A model generated the notes under the pieces. The model did no database searches and was not told the DNA's origin. It saw nothing but the letters and a program-made list of their open reading frames with translations. Shown here piece after piece: positions 37,436-46,691 of a DNA stretch of 55,473 nt (its first letter is position 1; every line of letters begins with the position of its first letter). The stretch covers positions 1 through 55,473 of the forward strand of contig JAJZRB010000007.1 in assembly GCA_021806615.1 (NCBI GenBank), written 5' to 3'. Both the position numbers and the translations under genes were made by a program. The stretch comes from a bacterium (GTDB taxonomy: Bacteria > Patescibacteriota > Patescibacteriia > Patescibacteriales > UBA12465).

Positions 37436-37517
37436 TTATCAGCTTGATGTGTTATGATATATAAAGCATAATTAAATAAGGCCGCGCTCCTCAGGCGCCG
37501 GCCTTAGCATTACTCAT

Positions 37518-37823
37518 ATGACTAATAATTTTTCCCCGGCTTTAGAGCAATTCGTCAATCGTTTGCTCGCTGAAAAAAAATTATCTGATTTAGAGCCAGG
37601 CGTCCGCGATCAGGCCAAGGCCGATTTATTAGAGAAGGCGGAAGAGCGCGTTAAGGCCGCTATTTTCGCCAATATGCCAGCCGATAAATTAGCGGAATTT
37701 ACTGGGTTGATGGACAGCGGTGATGAAGCTAAATTACAAACCTTTATCCAAGAGGCTATTCCCAACTTGGAGCAGATCATCGCTCAGAGCTTGCTGGATT
37801 TTCGCGATACCTATCTCGGCTGA
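37518..37823 (+). CDS. Small helical acidic protein (DUF5663-like)
   Basis: 101-aa helical ORF; LQTFIQEAIPNLEQII resembles DUF5663 proteins as recalled, not searched. Confidence 0.65.
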   Translation: MTNNFSPALEQFVNRLLAEKKLSDLEPGVRDQAKADLLEKAEERVKAAIFANMPADKLAEFTGLMDSGDEAKLQTFIQEAIPNLEQIIAQSLLDFRDTYLG

Positions 37824-37829
37824 ACGGCT

Positions 37830-38009
37830 ATGTCATTATCCAACCAGGCCAAAATAAATCGTATCAACGACATTTATCAAGAATTTTTGCATAAAGTCAG
37901 AGAGATTGAAAGCGCGCGCGATCGCAAGATAGCCGCCCTCTTAGCCAGCGATGACGAGGCAAAGATCGCACGGATAAGGCAAGATTTAAAATCAAGATTT
38001 AAAGGATAA
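37830..38009 (+). CDS. 59-aa coiled-coil protein (not in ORF track)
   Basis: MSLSNQAKINRINDIYQEFLHKVREIESARDRKIAALLASDDEAKIARIRQDLKSRFKG*, 6 nt after upstream stop. Confidence 0.7.
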   Translation: MSLSNQAKINRINDIYQEFLHKVREIESARDRKIAALLASDDEAKIARIRQDLKSRFKG

Positions 38010-38048
38010 TCCGGTCTTCAGCACGGCCGGATTTTATATTTTAACTAT

Positions 38049-41000
38049 ATGCCAAACTTTTACGGAGGCTTGAAAAAATTTTTCAGTCTTAAGGAGGACA
38101 GCCGGAAGAAAGACGAGGCGGAAAAAAATAAGCTAGAAGAAGGACCTAGCCCGGAAGACGTAGCCCGGGAATTGGCGCTAGCCGAAGAAAAGATAAGAAA
38201 TCAAGAGCTTTCTCCCGATGCGAGCGGCGAACTGCCGGATGAGAAAAAACCGGCCGGCCAAAAAGTAGTCCAAGAGGCGGGTTCGGATCTGGCGGCCGCT
38301 AAAAAAGATTCTTTGCATAGTTTGGACCAGGCGGCTAAATTGACTTTCACCGCCGGCCTTGTTGACACTTCAGACATCATGCGCAGCCAAGCGCATCGCG
38401 CCGCTTCGGAGAAGATGACGGCAGACAAGAAGGAGTTGAGCGGTTTTAAAGGGATAGTCGCCAGGATCTGGAAATATAATTATGCCGAACAGTATTTGCA
38501 CGAGCAAGAACGCGTCAAGGCTAAGAAAAGGATATTAGCGGAAGGAAATGTCTATAGCAATGAAGGGCTGAGCGCGACTGAGAAAGCAGAAGCGAATAAA
38601 GCCTTCCAAGACGCGACCTTGACCAGGTTCACTTCGGAAATCAAGGGCTTAGTGGAAGAGAATCTGGGCGAGAAGCGCGAACAGCTGGCTGATACCGCGG
38701 CGGCTAAGGCGATCAAGTCCGACCTGAAGAAGATAATCAACGAATATGCCGATGGCCGGATAGACGAAGCGGGATTCGAGGGAGCAAAACGCGCCGTCTT
38801 TGAAAAAATACAGCAAAGCGGCGATCAGACGACGATCAAGCAGAGCGAAATGTTCGTCGATAATTTTCTGGCTATCGCCGATCAAGTCAAAGGGATCAAA
38901 GATAATATCCGCCAAGCCGCCGACCATCAGGAAAAATTAGCCGCCTTTGATTTCGATCTTAATCTCATCTTAGGCAAAGCGAAGGAAGGAATAAAGACGG
39001 AAACGCATTATAATCTAGCGGAAAAGACCGTAGAGAGATTGCGGCGCAGCAAATTAGGCAGCCTCATTAACGAGACGACTCTGGCGGCTTCGGTCGGCCT
39101 GGCTTACTCGGCCGGTTCCTTCTTATCCCAGCGCGTTTTACGTTCTAAAGCGATGGCAGTCGGAACTTTGGGCCTGGCCGTCGGCGTTTCCGGCGCTTAT
39201 TCTGGCATCAAGGAAAGCCAGATGCAGAAGAGGGAACGCCAAACCTTAGAAGCGCGCGCCGCTACAGGGGCCGTCGATCTCCAGGCAGAACAGCAGAAAT
39301 TAGGCCAGGAAATTACGGCCTTGAAAGAAGCCGAAAAGATGACGAGCGATAAGAAAGAATTAAGAAATATCAGCAATAGGCTAAAGAGCTTAGAGGGGGA
39401 ACGGAAGAAAATGGCTGAGCAGGAAAGCTTCCTATACCAGAAGAAGACCGCGCGGGAGCTCAGCGCTAATTTACAGCAGGCGCTTTATGAAGTCGATCCT
39501 AGCGGCCAAGCGAACGTTAAGAAATTTGATTCCGCCGCTGAGCTGGACGGCGTCCTGGACCAATTGGCGCAAATCGAGGCCCGTCTGGAGCTTTCTAATG
39601 AGAAAAAGATAGATCTGATAAGCTATTCCAGCTTAGCCAAAGTAGAAAGCGAACGCTTGGATTTGTTGCAAGCTAAATGGCAGGCTAAAGACAGGCTGCA
39701 ATCTTTGCCGGCTGATGTCAGCCGGGATTGGGAGAAACGCCTGAAGGATCTGACGAACCTCCATCGCCAAGTATTGCTGAAAAATGATGATGGCGGCATT
39801 GAAAGAAAAGATCAGCTTTTCAATAAATATAAAAACAAGGAGGTCCTCCGGAAAGTCGCGCAGAGCGCCGTCAGCGGCCTGACTATCGGCTTAGCGGCCC
39901 AGGAAGTTTTTGCCGCTTTCTCGGACAAACAGGAAGGCCTGGTAGAAAATATATTCAAAGGAGACAAGCGCATCCTAGGCGGGCGCGATACGGCGCTGGA
40001 AGCTTTACGCGGCTGGCTGACCGGCCATCACGCTGTCGGCGAGATGCATGAGGCGGCCATCGCTAACGGCTTAGTCAAACTGCCGGGAGATTGCAGCTGG
40101 CTGCATAATCCGGATGGCTCTTTCAATCTGGTGCGCGGCTCAGAAGTTTTGGCCGAACATTTGAAAGTAAATCCGGACGGCTCTTTGACCTCAGAGGCTA
40201 GGGATTTATTAGCGGCCGAGCATATCAATGTCGCCGCCAGCCAATATTTGATCGAACCGGGTCAAAATACCACGACCTTAACCCACCTCAGCCCTAATGA
40301 TTATATTGATAAGCATAGCGGAGATTTCAAGCAAGTCAGCCGCAGCTTATGGTATGCGAACGACACCCCGATGTATAAAGGGCCGGACGGCAAGCTGCAC
40401 GGAGCTGATTTGAATGAACTCAAGGAACAATGGGGCGGCGACCATGGCTCAGGCATCAATACTAAGACTAATTGCTATGAGATGACCGCTTTCAGGATGC
40501 GCCCGGACGGATCGTTTGAAACCGTAAACGGCACTAAACTGAATGAAAATGCCGCTGAATTGATCAAGGAAGGAAAAATGAGATTCCAGTTTTCTCTATC
40601 TGATGAAACCCAGAATCAGGTTATTGACCTGCCTGTCGATCCGGTCACCGGGAAAATAAGCGTTGAAAGGGGAAGCGAGCTCGGTAAGCTTTTATTCGGC
40701 GAGAAGAATAGCCACGGCGCCTTGCAGGCCGTCTTGAAAGCGAGATTCGCTGAAGTCGTGACTTCGGCCGGAGTCGGCCAGAATGGCGTGGAAAAAGTCC
40801 ATGTGTTTGCGACCGCTGTCGGCGAAGGGTTGAAAGACGCGACTGCCTCGGAAATAATCAATACGCCGCCGCAATTAGGGACGTCCACTATCCTCGATGT
40901 TCCGCGGGAATGGGATATCCCGCCAGTCATTCCAGTCGGTTGGCGGAAACCCCTGGGCAAGATACCGGGGGCCGGTTTTGAGTATAGCCTCTATCAGCCC

Positions 41001-43316
41001 GGTCCAGTGGATGAGAACCGCCTGAAAAAGATGGCGGAAAGACGTTCGGATACTTTGAATAGAGACCCGCGCGCCAAGCTTGACCACTACGAAGAGATTG
41101 AAAAATATTTTGCCAAGATGGATAAGGATTATCGGGAAAAGATCAAGGGTTTGGCGGCCGAAGCCGGAGCGATGAGCCCCGAGAACAAGGTCTCTATCTG
41201 CATCCCGGTAGCTGGCCATCAGGAAGGAGGCAGGATTTATGAATCATTGAAGAATTATACTTACCAGAAAGCCGAGCCGGAAGATTTTGAGATCTGCTTG
41301 ATGGTCAATCATCCGGATCACGATCAGGACGGGAAGGAGATCAAGCCTGATAAGACGCTGGCGGAGATAGAGCGCTTTAAAAAAGATTACCCGCAGATGA
41401 ATGTCAAAGTGATGTATAAAGTCATCCCTTATGAAGAGGTCAATATCGGCCTGGTGCGTAAGATGTTGAATGATGCCGTCCTTTATCGCCAGCATGAGCG
41501 AGGGAAAAAAGCTCCGGATTTGATCATGGTCAGTAACGATGCGGACAATCTGGGCATTGATCCGCGTTATGTCCAGAATTTCATCAAGAGATTCGCCGAT
41601 AATCCTAAACTGGACGGCGTACTCGGACAGTTAGATTGGGATCCGGAAGCCTATACTAAATATCCGTTGATCCATATTGGCACCCGTTTATTCCAATACT
41701 ATTCCGGCCTGGGGCGCAAGAATCGTGGCGGAATCGTTTCTAGCGGTGCCAATTTCGCTTTTAAATCAAGCATCTACGCCGGTATCGGCGGCTATTTAGA
41801 CGATGTCCAAGGAGGGGAAGATGTCGCTATCGGCCAGGCGATCTCTTTAGCCCGCGGCGATACTTATGAAACCCAGCGCCACGGCGGATCAGCTTCGCGG
41901 CTCTTCACTTCCGCCCGCCGGGCCATAGATGTCTTGAATAAATTCAATCTATCCCCGGTAGAACAGTGGGATAAAGGTTTCAGCGCTTTTGACGATGAGA
42001 TACGCAAGATGGACCTAAATAGCTTGGCCGGCGAGAAGATCGATTATCGCGATCCCAAATTTTTAGCGAAATTCAAGATCGGCTTGGAGCATATCATCAA
42101 TCAGACCCTGAATGTCTATGAGCGCGGGGAGAAATTAGGCAAAGGCCATAGGACCTATCGCGAGGAGATTATCGGACGTTTAGGCATCAAATATAAGCTT
42201 GACGATAAAGGTAATGTGGTGATTACCGATATGTCCAAATTAGTGAAGGGCTTGGAGACTTATCAGAAAGAAGGGATCCTGCAGCGCGACGCCCGATCCG
42301 GCAAGCTTAAGCCGGCGGAAAGATTGAAGAAGATGCGCGCGGCGCGCCAGAGCGTAGAGGCAGGAGGAGAAAAGCCCGCTCCAGAGGAAAGCGCCTTAGC
42401 CAAAGAAAATGACGCCTCCCTGAAGAAATTCTATGAAGAGGGGAAGAGGATAATAGACGTCAGTTTGACCGCGCCCGCCATTAAGGAAATCAAGGCCGGA
42501 GAAAAACAAAGCGATCTGGACGGCGAATATGTCCGGCGCGATAATGAAATAATCTCCGAAGGCGAAACCGGACGGGTCGTAGCCGGTTATGACAAGGCGA
42601 CGCAAGAGCCGGTGGTCATCAAGGAAAGTCCGAAAAGCAAGAAGAAGAAATTGGATCCGGAAAAGTATTTATTAGATCGCGGCTTCAGTGATCCTGCCCT
42701 GGCCTTGCCTCGCAAGAGGCTGGAACGAGGCCAGGAAATAATCAAAGTCTATCAGGCGGCGGAAACTGACCTGGAACATTATTTAGAGAGTTACCATAAG
42801 CTAGAGCCGAAAGCGGCCCTAGAAATAATCATCCGTCTAAGCGATGCCGCTCGTCAGCTGCACCGCCTAGATGTTGTCCATGGCGATATCGCGCCGAGCA
42901 ATGTCCTGTTATTTCCCGACGGCGCCAAGCTCGGGGATTTAGATGATTCTTATGTCCATGATTTCATAAAGACCGGCAATAGCGGCAATCGCTTCATCAT
43001 GGCGCCAGAGATGTTCGCCGGAGAAGGACAGAATAAGTTCGATAAGACTGTAGATATTTATGCCTTATCAGCCGATCTATACTATATGCTCGTCGGACGC
43101 TGGCCGCACCAGATCGAGGAAAAGGGATTGACCCCGGAAGCCAAACAGGAGAAATATAAAGAATTGCATGAGACGGAAGAAATAAGCTACCCGGATGATA
43201 TCCCGCCGGTTTTACGTCCTATCTTAGCCAGAGGCTTGGCTGTCAGCCCATCCGGACGATATCAGAGCATAGACTACCTGTTGAAAGATCTCCTGTCGGC
43301 TTATAACAGTCTTTAG
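38049..43316 (+). CDS. 1755-aa protein: coiled-coil/hydrophobic N-terminus, GT-A glycosyltransferase, C-terminal Ser/Thr kinase
   Basis: GT: VSICIPVAGHQE, NDAD, SGANFAF, GGEDV; kinase: SEGETGRV, VVIKE, HGDIAPSNVLL, APE, DIYAL. Confidence 0.85.
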   Translation: MPNFYGGLKKFFSLKEDSRKKDEAEKNKLEEGPSPEDVARELALAEEKIRNQELSPDASGELPDEKKPAGQKVVQEAGSDLAAAKKDSLHSLDQAAKLTFTAGLVDTSDIMRSQAHRAASEKMTADKKELSGFKGIVARIWKYNYAEQYLHEQERVKAKKRILAEGNVYSNEGLSATEKAEANKAFQDATLTRFTSEIKGLVEENLGEKREQLADTAAAKAIKSDLKKIINEYADGRIDEAGFEGAKRAVFEKIQQSGDQTTIKQSEMFVDNFLAIADQVKGIKDNIRQAADHQEKLAAFDFDLNLILGKAKEGIKTETHYNLAEKTVERLRRSKLGSLINETTLAASVGLAYSAGSFLSQRVLRSKAMAVGTLGLAVGVSGAYSGIKESQMQKRERQTLEARAATGAVDLQAEQQKLGQEITALKEAEKMTSDKKELRNISNRLKSLEGERKKMAEQESFLYQKKTARELSANLQQALYEVDPSGQANVKKFDSAAELDGVLDQLAQIEARLELSNEKKIDLISYSSLAKVESERLDLLQAKWQAKDRLQSLPADVSRDWEKRLKDLTNLHRQVLLKNDDGGIERKDQLFNKYKNKEVLRKVAQSAVSGLTIGLAAQEVFAAFSDKQEGLVENIFKGDKRILGGRDTALEALRGWLTGHHAVGEMHEAAIANGLVKLPGDCSWLHNPDGSFNLVRGSEVLAEHLKVNPDGSLTSEARDLLAAEHINVAASQYLIEPGQNTTTLTHLSPNDYIDKHSGDFKQVSRSLWYANDTPMYKGPDGKLHGADLNELKEQWGGDHGSGINTKTNCYEMTAFRMRPDGSFETVNGTKLNENAAELIKEGKMRFQFSLSDETQNQVIDLPVDPVTGKISVERGSELGKLLFGEKNSHGALQAVLKARFAEVVTSAGVGQNGVEKVHVFATAVGEGLKDATASEIINTPPQLGTSTILDVPREWDIPPVIPVGWRKPLGKIPGAGFEYSLYQPGPVDENRLKKMAERRSDTLNRDPRAKLDHYEEIEKYFAKMDKDYREKIKGLAAEAGAMSPENKVSICIPVAGHQEGGRIYESLKNYTYQKAEPEDFEICLMVNHPDHDQDGKEIKPDKTLAEIERFKKDYPQMNVKVMYKVIPYEEVNIGLVRKMLNDAVLYRQHERGKKAPDLIMVSNDADNLGIDPRYVQNFIKRFADNPKLDGVLGQLDWDPEAYTKYPLIHIGTRLFQYYSGLGRKNRGGIVSSGANFAFKSSIYAGIGGYLDDVQGGEDVAIGQAISLARGDTYETQRHGGSASRLFTSARRAIDVLNKFNLSPVEQWDKGFSAFDDEIRKMDLNSLAGEKIDYRDPKFLAKFKIGLEHIINQTLNVYERGEKLGKGHRTYREEIIGRLGIKYKLDDKGNVVITDMSKLVKGLETYQKEGILQRDARSGKLKPAERLKKMRAARQSVEAGGEKPAPEESALAKENDASLKKFYEEGKRIIDVSLTAPAIKEIKAGEKQSDLDGEYVRRDNEIISEGETGRVVAGYDKATQEPVVIKESPKSKKKKLDPEKYLLDRGFSDPALALPRKRLERGQEIIKVYQAAETDLEHYLESYHKLEPKAALEIIIRLSDAARQLHRLDVVHGDIAPSNVLLFPDGAKLGDLDDSYVHDFIKTGNSGNRFIMAPEMFAGEGQNKFDKTVDIYALSADLYYMLVGRWPHQIEEKGLTPEAKQEKYKELHETEEISYPDDIPPVLRPILARGLAVSPSGRYQSIDYLLKDLLSAYNSL

Positions 43317-43334
43317 TATTTTACGCGGCATATT

Positions 43335-43362
43335 AAAATCGGCTTAATCAGCCGATTTTTTG
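43335..43362 (+). terminator. Terminator after the giant gene
   Basis: AAAATCGGCT-taatc-AGCCGATTTT plus T-run. Confidence 0.8.
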
Positions 43363-43457
43363 TTATTTTCTTGCTTAAATCTCTAAAATAAGTTAAAATC
43401 TAGTGGTAAAATATCTAAGAATTTTTTAAAAAAACGAGTCTGATCGTTTAGTTTTTT

Positions 43458-45251
43458 ATGTTAAGAACTCATACTTGTGGTGAATTAAATTTATCTAATA
43501 TCGGCCAAAAAGTCGTTATATCCGGTTGGGTTAACAGTATCCGTAACCATGGCGGCCTGATTTTCGTTGATTTGCGCGACCGCTACGGCTTGACCCAGGT
43601 AAAATTCAACCAGTCCGATAATAAAGAAGCAGCCGCGATCGCCGAGAAATTACATGATGAATGGGTCGTCAAAGTGAAAGGCGAAGTTGAGGCTCGTCCG
43701 GCTGATATGGTCAACGCGAAGACAGCGACCGGCACCATAGAAGTTATCGCTTCTGAAATAGAAATTTTAGGCCAAGCTAAAGTCTTGCCTTTTGAAATCA
43801 ACGAGGAAAAGAACGCGGAGGCTAACGAAGCCTTGCGTCTGAAGTACCGCTTCATTGACTTGCGCCGGCCTAAATTACAGGAGATGTTGAGAGTCAAAGA
43901 TAAATTCATCTCTTATATCCGAGATTATTTCCATCAGCGGGATTTCGTAGAAGTCCAGACTCCGATACTAGCTAATTCTTCGCCGGAAGGCGCGCGTGAT
44001 TTCTTGGTACCCTCCCGCCTTTATCCCGGAAAATTTTATGCTCTGCCGCAAGCGCCCCAGCAGTTCAAGCAATTGCTCATGGTCGGCGGCGTAGATAAAT
44101 ATTTCCAGATCGCGCCCTGCTTCCGCGATGAAGATCCGCGGATGGATCGCCATTATGGCGAGTTCTATCAATTAGATATGGAAATGAGCTTCGTGGAACA
44201 GGAAGATGTCTTCGCCGTCATGGATCCGCTCATGATTGAATTGACGGAAAAATTCAGCTCCAAGAAGATTATTAATTTGCAGCCGGACGGACGTTTTCCG
44301 CGCTTATCCTGGCGGGAAGCGATGGATAGATACGGCTCTGATAAGCCGGACCTCCGTTTTGATCTGAGCATCAAAGATGTCAGCGACGCTGTCCGTGATT
44401 GCGGTTTTTCCGTCTTTACCGATACGCTGGATAATAAAGGCGTGGTTCACGCCCTGAAAATAGATGGTGGGGCTAAGTTCACGCGGAAAGAGATTGACGA
44501 GTATACGGAATTAGCGAAGAAACGGGGCGCGAAAGGTTTGGCTTACCTGAGCCTCAAGGAGGGGAGCATAAATTCCCCTTTTGCCAAATTCATGGCCCCG
44601 GAGAAATTACAAGCGATCGCTACCGCCTGTGAGGCGCGGGAAGGCGATCTGGTTTTTTTCGCGGCTGACGCTTGGCGGACGGTCTGCAATGTGCTGGGAG
44701 CGGTCAGGAACGAAGCCGCGAGCCGCTTGGGCCTGAAAGATAATGCCAAGGCCGCTTGGCTCTGGATTGTTGATTTTCCCATGTATGATTATTCGGAAAT
44801 AGAAGAGGGGCGGATTGATTTTGGCCATAATCCTTTTTCCATGCCCCAAGGCGGCTTGAAGGCTCTAGAAGAACAGGATCCTTTGGATATACTAGCTTAC
44901 CAGTATGACTTGGTCATTAACGGTTTTGAAGCTTCTAGCGGCGCCATACGCAATCATGATCCGGAAATAATGTATAAAGCGTTCGCTATCGCCGGCTATA
45001 GCCGGGAAGAAGTTGACCATAAATTCGGCGCCATGATCAACGCTTTTTCTTACGGCGCTCCGCCGCACGGCGGAAACGCGCCAGGCATTGATAGGATCTT
45101 GATGGTCCTTAATGACTGGGATTCTATCCGCGACATTTATGCTTTCCCGAAGGACGGGCAAGGCAGGGATCTGATGACCGATTCGCCGAGCGAGGTCAAT
45201 CCTAAGCAGCTGGATGAATTATATCTGGCCGTCAATCATCGTAAGAAATAA
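43458..45251 (+). CDS. aspS: Aspartate--tRNA ligase
   Basis: RTHTCGEL, PEGARDFLVPSR, CFRDED, YGAPPHGG. Confidence 0.97.
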   Translation: MLRTHTCGELNLSNIGQKVVISGWVNSIRNHGGLIFVDLRDRYGLTQVKFNQSDNKEAAAIAEKLHDEWVVKVKGEVEARPADMVNAKTATGTIEVIASEIEILGQAKVLPFEINEEKNAEANEALRLKYRFIDLRRPKLQEMLRVKDKFISYIRDYFHQRDFVEVQTPILANSSPEGARDFLVPSRLYPGKFYALPQAPQQFKQLLMVGGVDKYFQIAPCFRDEDPRMDRHYGEFYQLDMEMSFVEQEDVFAVMDPLMIELTEKFSSKKIINLQPDGRFPRLSWREAMDRYGSDKPDLRFDLSIKDVSDAVRDCGFSVFTDTLDNKGVVHALKIDGGAKFTRKEIDEYTELAKKRGAKGLAYLSLKEGSINSPFAKFMAPEKLQAIATACEAREGDLVFFAADAWRTVCNVLGAVRNEAASRLGLKDNAKAAWLWIVDFPMYDYSEIEEGRIDFGHNPFSMPQGGLKALEEQDPLDILAYQYDLVINGFEASSGAIRNHDPEIMYKAFAIAGYSREEVDHKFGAMINAFSYGAPPHGGNAPGIDRILMVLNDWDSIRDIYAFPKDGQGRDLMTDSPSEVNPKQLDELYLAVNHRKK

Positions 45252-45302
45252 CCTAGCGGATGATGCCGGTTGAAGCATTCCCGGCTAATAACCAATCAAT
45301 TT

Positions 45303-46691
45303 ATGCCCATAACCTTAATAAAATCTTTATTCCGTTCTGCCGAATATTTGAATCAGGAAGTGATTGTCGCCGGTTGGGTGCGCACCGCGCGCAGTTCCAA
45401 GGATTTCGGCTTCATTGAAATAAATGACGGCTCTTTTTTCAAGGGTTTGCAAATAGTTTTCGCTAGCGATTTAGAAAATTTCAGCGAAGTGGAAAAGATC
45501 AGCGTCGGATCGTCTTTAAGAGTAGAAGGGAAATTAGTCGAGTCTCCGGCTAGCGGCCAGGCCTTTGAATTGAAAGCGCGGAAGATAAGCATCCTCAACT
45601 TGGCGCCGGCCGATTATCCGCTCCAGAAAAAGAAGCATAGTTTTGAGTTCTTGCGGACGATCGCCCATTTACGCGGCCGCAGCAATACTTTTTCCGCCGT
45701 CTTTCGCCTCCGTTCCGCTTTGAGCTTCGCGATACATAAATTTTTTAATGAAGAAGGGTTTAGTTATATCCATACGCCGATAATCTCAACGAGCGACTGC
45801 GAAGGAGCGGGCGAGATGTTCCAGGTGACTACCCTGGACCTGTCTCATCCCGCTAAGGACGATAAAGGGGGAATAGACTATAGCGAAGATTTTTTCGGCA
45901 AGAAGGCAGGATTGACCGTCAGCGGACAGCTCAATGCCGAGGCGCTGGTCATGGGCTTGAATAAGGTCTATACTTTCGGCCCGACTTTCCGGGCGGAGAA
46001 TTCTAATACGACGCGGCACGCTTCGGAATTCTGGATGATGGAGCCGGAGATGGCTTTTTCTAACCTGGATGACGATATGGCGCTCGCGGAAAAGATGCTT
46101 AAGTATCTGATCGCCTATATCCTCCAGGAATTGCCGGAAGAGATGGAATTTTTTAATAAATTCATCGATCCGGGGATCAAGGAGCGCCTGCATAACATCC
46201 TGGATTCCGAATTCGCGCGGATAACTTATACGGAAGCGGTGGAAATCCTGGAAAAATCTGGCGAGAAATTCGTCTATCCGGTGAAATGGGGCATTGATCT
46301 GCAGACCGAACATGAGAAATATCTGACCGATAAGGTCTATAAAAAGCCGGTTTTTGTCACTGACTATCCTAAGGATATCAAGGCCTTCTATATGCGCCTG
46401 AATGAAGACGGGAAAACGGTCGCGGCCATGGATCTCCTGGCTCCGGGCATCGGGGAGATCATCGGCGGCAGCCAGCGCGAAGAACGCTTGGAATATCTGG
46501 AAAGACGGATGTCGGAGATGGGCCTCAAGAAAGAAGATTACGCCTGGTATCTGGATTTGCGCAAATATGGCTCGGTGCCGCACGCCGGTTTCGGCCTAGG
46601 CTTTGAGCGGCTCATAATGTACCTGTCCGGTATGGCCAATATCCGCGATGTGATTCCGTTCCCGCGGACGCCGAAGAACGCGGAGTTTTAA
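45303..46691 (+). CDS. asnS: Asparagine--tRNA ligase
   Basis: [37 protein letters not shown]. Confidence 0.97.

Follow-up and report, generated by a model that had tools for sequence, protein, structure and literature searches.

A giant protein with a conserved GT2-like glycosyltransferase domain and an optional kinase domain, encoded in an accessory cassette of a Patescibacteria genome

Genomic locus and domain architecture

The locus described here lies on contig JAJZRB010000007.1 (GCA_021806615.1) of a Patescibacteria genome of 847 kb (14 contigs, 95% complete). The window, i.e., the whole stretch of DNA that was analysed, comprises 55,473 nt of the forward strand and carries ribosomal and other housekeeping genes around one giant gene (Table 1), which is present in a single copy in the genome and encodes a protein of 1755 amino acids (aa). 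An earlier reading of the DNA, made from the sequence alone (the original prediction), had claimed this reading frame; it is indeed open throughout, and no other long open reading frame (ORF) exists at that place. Behind a helical N-module and a β-rich central domain, the protein contains a glycosyltransferase (GT) domain and a Hanks-type protein kinase. The GT2-like, probably inverting and metal-dependent predicted glycosyltransferase can be regarded with confidence as the conserved catalytic heart of a large protein family, in which the kinase is optional. Approximately 1400 of the 1755 residues lack a Pfam family.

Table 1. Features of the giant gene, its cassette, and the domains of the encoded protein (positions in the window)
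Feature	Position	Strand	Basis and remarks
Inserted segment (DUF5663, 59-aa ORF, giant gene) between recO and aspS	37436..43457	+	synteny comparison
DUF5663 gene, small acidic helical protein, 101 aa	37518..37823	+	Pfam PF18908
59-aa ORF between DUF5663 and giant gene	37830..38009	+	read from sequence; candidate gene, uncertain
Terminator-like hairpin 5' of giant gene	38008..38033	+	consensus scan: 9-bp stem, then T-rich tail
Giant gene	38049..43316	+	open frame, 1755 aa; one copy in genome
Helical N-module (aa 95-660)	38331..40028	+	AlphaFold2 model, pLDDT mostly 80-95; conserved
Helix pair H1/H2 (aa 344-387), Gly/Ala-rich, weakly hydrophobic	39078..39209	+	hydropathy; short basic loop between
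Helix H3 (aa 605-625), weakly hydrophobic	39861..39923	+	hydropathy; basic flank before, acidic after
β-rich central domain (aa ~666-950)	40044..40898	+	secondary structure of AlphaFold2 model
GT-A (GT2-like) core (aa 1043-1311)	41175..41981	+	model fold, fold matches, conservation
Conserved α/β extension of GT domain (aa ~1312-1439)	41982..42365	+	pLDDT about 90; family alignment
Charged linker (aa ~1440-1498)	42366..42542	+	pLDDT <50 from aa 1441
Hanks-type protein kinase (aa 1499-1739), non-RD (HGD)	42543..43265	+	Pfam PF00069
Terminator-like hairpin 3' of giant gene	43335..43359	+	10-bp stem, then T run
pLDDT, predicted local distance difference test.

The possibility that the fusion of the two enzymatic domains is an assembly artefact is refuted. 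Contigs of four sequencing runs from two studies cover the giant-gene stretch with no indels and no joints. Single contigs bridge the GT-kinase junction in run X2 (38699-42712, spanning also the N-module-to-GT part), run X4 (40902-43500), and run X5 from the second study (40937-42757), and a single contig of run X1 (possibly the sample of origin) extends over 37717-43500. Groundwater and mine drainage are among the settings in which this DNA is found. As the junction is bridged and five homologues (51-55% identity, spanning 97-99% of the query, kinase included) display the full architecture, the fusion is real.

The glycosyltransferase domain

Residues 990-1450 were modelled with AlphaFold2 from 31 sequences (pLDDT 89.1, predicted template-modelling score, pTM, 0.88), and the model adopts a clear GT-A fold, with a single Rossmann-like α/β/α domain. 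Foldseek relates the model to 191 PDB structures at E ≤ 1e-3, the top matches being PcManGT, a Leptospira GT, chondroitin polymerase, hyaluronan synthases, and TarS/TarP. VIA-align, run against 48,161 chains, lists 50 matches, such as (with the two VIA-align values) chitin synthase (PDB ID: 8k52; 16.3, 263), hyaluronan synthase (PDB ID: 8smm; 16.2, 243), WrtF (PDB ID: 9omh; 16.2, 187), TarS and TarP (PDB IDs: 5tz8 and 6h1j; 16.0, 195 and 200, respectively), and SpsA (PDB ID: 1h7l; 15.8, 193). The listed fold neighbours are GT2 enzymes of the envelope and of polysaccharides; no toxin-type glycosyltransferase occurs among the listed Foldseek matches and the 50 VIA-align matches, which does not exclude such a family.

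The domain is classed by fold only, as the isolated GT region of the query fails the Pfam test for every GT family even at E ≤ 10, and PDB sequence and profile searches with the family core gave nothing below E 0.04. The same region of one homologue (P0090) reaches PF13641 (Glyco_tranf_2_3) with 28.8 bits at a cut-off of 27. The DAD and GED motifs, on which the predicted GT-A domain had been based, correspond to D1164-A-D1166 and to the end of a GGED motif (aa 1255-1258); Asp1164, Asp1166, and Asp1258 are invariant in 31/31 aligned sequences, and the DxD motif is located between model strands 170-173 and 178-181. Judged from the sequence, Asp1258 might act as the GT2-type catalytic base, in the manner of the (E/T)ED-type motif of inverting GT2 enzymes, which would fit inverting chemistry.

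The median identity to the query amounts to 31% in the N-module, 33% in the central domain, 61% in the GT core, and 47% in its C-terminal extension. The GT core being the most conserved part (61% vs 31%) suggests a conserved substrate. It also disagrees with the notion of the GT-A domain as a swappable warhead.

The kinase domain

A charged linker connects the GT domain to the kinase, and the BLAST alignment of most homologues ends at aa ~1410-1445. A Hanks-type kinase had been proposed at approximately 42550-43300, and Pfam places PF00069 there (aa 1499-1739; E 1.4e-17, 64.4 bits vs a cut-off of 31.7). The family profile matches PDB kinases 4eqm and 9ymt (E about 3e-20) as well as StkP and PknB (1e-13 to 1e-16). 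NCBIfam yields, for the whole protein, nothing but sub-threshold kinase matches (49 bits vs an equivalog cut-off of 450), and PHROGs contains no match to the giant protein.

The domain is present in 28 of the 119 homologues examined and absent from the other 91. In the 29 kinase-bearing members (these homologues and the query), the catalytic positions are kept in at least 95% of the sequences: the subdomain II lysine (Lys1525), the subdomain III glutamate (Glu1538), Asp1613 and Asn1618 of subdomain VIb, the Mg-binding aspartate of subdomain VII (Asp1630), Pro1653-Glu1654 of the APE motif (MAPE in the query, aa 1651-1654), and the C-lobe Asp1669 and Arg1736. The Gly-rich loop is degenerate (GETGRV vs GxGxxG) and not conserved across the family. 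The catalytic loop reads HGDIAPSN; with HGD in place of HRD, the arginine is absent, which defines a non-RD kinase. Both the GxGxxG loop and the HRD arginine are typical of Hanks kinases, though not obligatory. By its residues, the kinase can thus be taken with confidence as predicted to be catalytically intact, and it is clearly an optional element of the family. It constitutes the sole Pkinase match in the 95% complete genome, in which neither PP2C_2 nor FHA domains were matched.

The N-terminal two thirds

In the N-terminal part, for which the original prediction had suggested a long charged coiled coil, the first 95 residues are charged and not conserved, and most homologues begin aligning (BLAST) at aa ~100. 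The following region was modelled with AlphaFold2 in one piece (aa 95-1000; pLDDT 78.7, pTM 0.58). Residues 95-640 form a multi-helix domain, in which many helices reach pLDDT values of 85-95, whereas the segment of aa 336-375 stays below 50. Fold searches with this model revealed no significant structural relative of the N-module. The supposed 'translocation-like stalk' is therefore not borne out: the region is a folded multi-helix domain lacking such a relative. The central region, regarded as unrecognised from the outset, found neither a Pfam nor a fold match, having been modelled jointly with the N-module; because of this joint modelling, new folds are not claimed for either domain. ESM Atlas searches with aa 95-640 and 641-1000 returned no usable match.

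The Gly/Ala-rich hydrophobic helices are located where they had been predicted. H1 (aa 344-362), H2 (aa 369-387), and H3 are rich in Gly, Ala, Ser, and Thr, and their position and character are kept in 37/37 aligned members; H3 contains a nearly invariant Gln-Glu. Their hydropathy is weak, with Kyte-Doolittle 19-residue means of 0.87, 1.39, and 1.32 for H1, H2, and H3, respectively. H1 and H2 are joined by a short loop, 5.8 aa on average, which is basic (mean +1.4) and contains no acidic residue; an external loop of a transmembrane hairpin would be expected to look different. The flank in front of H3 is strongly basic (+4.3), that behind it acidic (-1.4). The flanking charges of H1-H2 and of H3 hence point in opposite ways, and the topology of the protein is the crux of the functional question. 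Sequence and hydropathy peaks reveal no N-terminal hydrophobic stretch, which agrees with the claimed lack of an N-terminal signal peptide.

A family with variable C-terminal ends

A word-indexed homologue search returned 126 proteins, of which 120 were listed and 119 non-identical ones used for BLAST mapping. The mapping delimits a conserved core at aa ~100-1430 of the query, composed of the helical N-module (~560 aa), the β-rich domain (~300 aa), and the GT-A domain. In longer members whose BLAST alignment starts no earlier than aa ~750-950, a profile search still detects the N-module. When the N-module profile (aa 95-660, 32 sequences) was searched among 1.84 billion representatives, 1407 clusters at 50% identity were found at E ≤ 1e-3, and 1039 of them at E ≤ 1e-30.

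The expected combination of a kept N-terminus and a variable C-terminus is found in the family. The core may be followed by no further domain, a kinase, a kinase and a PP2C domain (P0120), a DnaJ domain (P0089 and P0086), or a calpain-like peptidase (P0058). P0016, P0078, P0081, and P0083 contain a tandem second GT module, the second copy being 31-35% identical to that of the query. In four relatives (63-66% identity over aa 1-970), a GT9 domain replaces both the GT-A domain and the kinase; a PDB search with one of these variants (P0011) gave no match. This replacement makes glycosyl transfer look like the common function.

These proteins constitute a large, Patescibacteria-centred family of giant glycosyltransferases that has not been described before; searches of a library of open-access papers found none on the family, the scaffold, or DUF5663. 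The enzymatic domains are of known kinds, whereas the scaffold, the partner described below, and the cassette behaviour are undescribed as far as this library shows.

Two loci (L055:2-11821 and L063:2-17476) are filled over their whole length by frames of at least 3940 and at least 5825 aa, which contain a copy of the GT module with 38% and 34% identity, respectively; their bins carry the label Planctomycetales. Two further GT-module loci (L040 and L043) belong to bins labelled as archaea (Methanosarcinales and Woesearchaeota), which could reflect either mis-binning or a real spread outside Patescibacteria.

The DUF5663 partner and the 59-aa ORF

The gene for a small DUF5663 protein precedes the giant gene on the same strand. 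Its PF18908 match (E 3.9e-10, 40.6 bits vs a cut-off of 23.7; 40.2 bits in the genome search) is the only one found in the genome. The association was followed in 51 GT-module loci from many Patescibacteria lineages, 11 of which are uninformative because the locus ends within the giant frame on its 5' side. Among the 40 informative loci, 37 contain a same-strand upstream DUF5663 homologue: in 33, a DUF5663-like ORF lies at most 200 bp upstream (E 1e-24 to 1e-41 with a subfamily profile), and in four it is found 0.5-2.5 kb upstream (in L030, the ORF in between corresponds to the N-module). DUF5663 is located downstream in one locus and was not found in the remaining two. In a set of 301 genomes of the phylum, 18 encode the giant protein and 57 DUF5663; both are present, mostly adjacent, in 14 of the 18. 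DUF5663 can therefore be firmly considered a conserved upstream neighbour of the giant gene. Complex prediction for the DUF5663 protein and aa 95-984 of the giant protein gave a score of 0.12, below the mark of 0.32.

The candidate 59-aa ORF between the two genes shares a weak similarity (29% over 51 aa) with a 68-aa ORF found at this position in a genome of the same class (blastp E 1.6e-6 in a two-sequence database, phmmer E 0.0016). It has no match in NCBIfam, PADLOC, or PHROGs.

Sixteen further DUF5663 loci were looked at. Two of them, from the same class, encode giant ORFs of 1903 and 1779 aa (L077:3516-9224, plus strand; L078:3331-8667, minus strand) after DUF5663 and an ORF of 68-69 aa; these giants have no Pfam match and no profile similarity to the GT-kinase family, share a mutual identity of 26-27%, and also carry weakly hydrophobic Gly/Ala-rich segments. 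In another subgroup, DUF5663 is located just downstream of infB (IF-2) in L068 and L073, as confirmed by Pfam, and, judged by ORF size only, in L067, L069-L072, and L074. Its occurrence beside infB points to a broader family with several genomic contexts. In another two loci (L075:984-2945 and L081:6016-8556), DUF5663 homologues adjoin genes of a VirB4/TraG-type P-loop ATPase and a VirD4/TrwB-type coupling protein; the VirB4/VirD4-type ATPases of the genome studied here are encoded on other contigs.

An accessory cassette between recO and aspS

Upstream of the cassette lie secY, the gene of a TerC/DUF475 protein, map, ruvX, and recO, while aspS, encoding aspartyl-tRNA synthetase, is the next gene 141 bp 3' of the giant gene; it is followed by a second class II synthetase gene, DUF5671, scpA/B, dacA-like and gtrA-like genes, dnaG, and rpoD. 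DUF5663 and DUF5671 are Patescibacteria families. The giant gene is flanked by terminator-like hairpins on both sides (Table 1); such hairpins are no more frequent in this region than expected from shuffled sequences.

Searches with this query did not find the giant gene in 18/18 genomes of the same genus or in 12/12 genomes of the same order, and the DUF5663 subfamily profile detected nothing in 5/5 same-genus genomes. In each of these five, aspS or an aspS-like gene follows recO within ~100-150 bp and is itself followed by the downstream genes of the window. The recO-aspS junction thus exists without the cassette, which identifies the segment as a recent, lineage-specific insertion. Repeats flanking it (direct or inverted) are limited to short, chance-level matches, and no recombinase was found at the insertion. 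The cassette is accessory and behaves as mobile. The case of an invariant housekeeping protein, with which the original prediction would have fallen, is refuted by the finding of the gene in 18/301 genomes of the phylum and in 0/30 close relatives, as well as by its position in an insertion.

Comparison with known systems

Among the closest known systems are the GT2 enzymes TarS and TarP, the wall teichoic acid N-acetylglucosamine transferases of Staphylococcus aureus, and SpsA of Bacillus subtilis, which share the GT-A fold with the query at only 12-16% identity. Unlike in these enzymes, the GT domain of the query follows an unrelated part of ~1000 aa, possesses an extension of its own (aa 1312-1439), and lacks a Pfam GT2 match. 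The membrane-embedded processive GT2 synthases (e.g., chitin synthase, hyaluronan synthase, and BcsA, PDB ID: 4p00) also belong to the closest systems. The kinase resembles PknB, Stk1, and StkP in its Pkinase match above the cut-off and in the conserved catalytic Lys, Glu, Asp, Asn, and Asp. It differs from them in the C-terminal location within a giant protein, the non-RD loop, and the degenerate Gly loop; in the PknB-type arrangement, the kinase is N-terminal and precedes a transmembrane helix and PASTA repeats.

The organization of the cassette may be compared to that of polymorphic toxins and LXG toxins, the latter of which are accompanied by Lap proteins in type VII secretion: one or two small helical proteins encoded upstream, a helical N-terminus, and exchangeable C-terminal enzymes would be analogous features. 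However, Pfam recognises no LXG or Rhs domain, nor any other trafficking domain, in the protein, and no downstream immunity gene is present in the window; moreover, in contrast to polymorphic toxins, the conserved core itself holds an enzyme (GT-A). Large clostridial toxins and Legionella Lgt/SetA likewise combine a GT-A domain and its DxD motif with a very large protein devoid of a signal peptide. None of them is among the listed fold matches, though, and no pore, autoprotease, or repeat domains were recognised by Pfam. While the GGED motif of the query would fit inverting GT2 chemistry, these toxins are retaining enzymes.

Functional interpretation

The reading that we tentatively prefer is that of a membrane-associated accessory platform for envelope glycosylation, lying against the cell's own membrane from the cytoplasmic side, where the kinase would act locally. 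The giant protein would be held there by its basic-flanked hydrophobic helices and would probably work together with the DUF5663 protein. The GT would take a sugar from its nucleotide-activated form and transfer it to an acceptor that might be an envelope polymer, a lipid-linked precursor, or an envelope protein; the DAD motif would hold a divalent metal, and Asp1258 would be the base, in the manner of inverting GT2 enzymes. The kinase would phosphorylate the giant protein itself or the same local substrates. Being an exchangeable accessory cassette, it would vary the cell surface, i.e., the interface with hosts and phages. This platform is favoured because the nearest folds are those of wall and surface-polymer enzymes, because the GT is strongly constrained even between distant lineages, and because another GT type can take its place. 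The cytoplasmic placement is proposed because no signal peptide is present and because several modules depend on cofactors or partners of the cytoplasm: ATP for the kinase, nucleotide sugars for the GTs of either type, and DnaK for DnaJ. PP2C and calpain-like add-ons also occur beside the kinase and DnaJ ones.

Several observations weigh against this envelope platform. Its acceptor, donor, and location are all inferred. As the hydropathy of H1-H3 lies entirely below the usual transmembrane range, membrane association itself is also indirect. The charges around H3 form the N-in/C-out pattern of a signal anchor, which would place the GT and the kinase outside. It is unusual for a surface-glycan enzyme, but common for a delivered effector, to have a scaffold of 1000 aa, swappable enzymatic ends, and a small acidic partner of helical structure. 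Finally, the kinase is the only Pkinase match of the genome, in which neither PP2C_2 nor FHA was matched, and it does not look as if it belonged to Ser/Thr signalling of the ordinary internal kind.

A rival explanation, which we consider somewhat less likely than the envelope platform, is an effector directed at the host or at competitors. The N-module would insert into the own or the target membrane (with H3 as a signal anchor in the former, or the H1/H2 hairpin entering the latter like pore-forming or translocation hairpins) and expose or deliver the GT and the kinase to the cytoplasm of another cell, in which they would glycosylate and phosphorylate host proteins, while the DUF5663 and 59-aa proteins would serve as chaperone or adaptor. 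The cassette is accessory, patchy, and inserted, its small acidic helical partner is conserved directly upstream, and its C-terminal enzymatic modules vary. In the two same-class genomes mentioned above, DUF5663 and the 68-69-aa ORF precede other, unrelated giants, and in 2/16 other loci DUF5663 homologues adjoin genes of VirB4-like and VirD4-like ATPases. If the C-terminus lies outside, as the N-in/C-out charges of H3 would have it, the GT and the kinase would depend on another cell's cytoplasm for their nucleotide sugars and ATP; that this kinase is the only Hanks kinase found in the genome, with neither FHA nor PP2C_2 matched, is in line with such a role. Cultivated Patescibacteria are, in addition, episymbionts according to a preprint (bioRxiv 10.1101/2024.11.25.624915).

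On the other hand, Pfam scans of the full-length protein (E ≤ 1) and of four pieces of it (E ≤ 10) revealed no secretion signal and no toxin translocation, autoprotease, or receptor-binding domain. The GT is strongly conserved across distant lineages, presumably having different hosts, and the fold matches listed for it are biosynthetic enzymes of the GT2 type. The giant gene is followed in the window by aspS and not by an immunity-like gene, and the hydropathy of the helices is weak. VirB4-like ATPases do not co-vary with the giant gene: being encoded in 290 of the 301 genomes of the phylum (a tally including the unpublished genome G154), they were discarded as uninformative for a co-varying secretion marker. 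The effector proposed in the original prediction thus stands with respect to both enzymes, their fusion, the variable ends, and the non-housekeeping nature of the gene, and falls short in the GT2 neighbourhood of the GT and in the failure to find secretion, translocation, autoprotease, or immunity functions. The role in surface glycosylation or inside the cell, which had been offered as its alternative, is judged at least as likely. A broader delivery model appears somewhat less probable still: DUF5663, sometimes together with a ~60-aa helical protein, would mark Patescibacteria-specific mobile cassettes for giant proteins, whose N-module, with H3 as the signal anchor and the Gly/Ala hairpin as the inserting element, would carry the GT into the host cytoplasm together with a second enzymatic module, be it a kinase, phosphatase, protease, or J-domain.

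Two other explanations receive a low probability. In a conflict or defence module, infection would switch on the kinase (or the protease, phosphatase, or J-domain of relatives), and the GT would modify a cellular or viral target. Such a role would be compatible with the patchy, inserted, and species-specific cassette, and the kinase finds its best PADLOC matches among defence kinase models (PD-T4-6 7.5e-22, mad6 1.4e-19, Stk2 3.3e-8). However, these matches cover the generic kinase domain only, leaving the rest of the protein and its two small neighbours unmatched. The C-terminal set of kinase, PP2C, calpain-like, and DnaJ modules resembles effector sets of prokaryotic conflict systems, which reportedly include comparable modules; nevertheless, the usual defence partners, such as an NTPase or a nuclease, are absent from the cassette, and 91 of the 119 homologues examined dispense with the kinase. 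It is just as improbable, although compatible with the envelope platform, that the kinase-like domain is not a protein kinase but a WaaP-like glycan or small-molecule kinase acting on the sugar product of the GT. The isolated domain shows a weak Kdo/WaaP similarity (PF06293, E 1.5e-4), several homologues have PF06293 matches, and the HGDIAPSN loop lacks the Lys of HRDxKxxN. Relatives moreover swap in GT9, the heptosyltransferase family; GT9 heptosyltransferases are linked to the lipopolysaccharide-core pathway, in whose synthesis WaaP works with glycosyltransferases. Yet the isolated domain scores 68.9 bits with Pkinase vs 21.7 with Kdo, its best PDB relatives are protein kinases of the PknB/Stk1/StkP type (E about 3e-20), and the kinase-bearing members retain features typical of protein kinases, namely the APE Pro-Glu and an Asp and an Arg in the C-lobe.

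Patescibacteria, which account for a large part of the diversity of bacteria, live attached to other microorganisms, and the proteins at this interface are little known. If the giant protein remodels the surface of the symbiont itself, as in the preferred envelope platform, it would provide a way of approaching recognition by hosts and phages. In the case of delivery, it would be a first candidate effector, and the family, should this be true, the first effector-delivery family described for the phylum. Since the GT (aa 990-1450) is confidently predicted and the catalytic residues of the kinase (aa 1499-1755) are intact, both could be expressed and assayed without cultivation.

Synthetase genes downstream of the cassette

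The region directly behind the insertion (43458-46691) is occupied by two neighbouring genes of class II synthetases (tRNA-synt_2) of 597 and 473 aa, of which the former has the GAD domain of the AspRS type and the latter lacks it. In two of the five same-genus genomes (L091:917-2239 and L092:935-2248), the position of the 597-aa aspS is taken by a shorter AspRS-like gene of 438-441 aa with only 32% identity, whereas the other three encode an aspS orthologue of 600-614 aa (75-77% identity). This is a replacement of the synthetase type within one genus.

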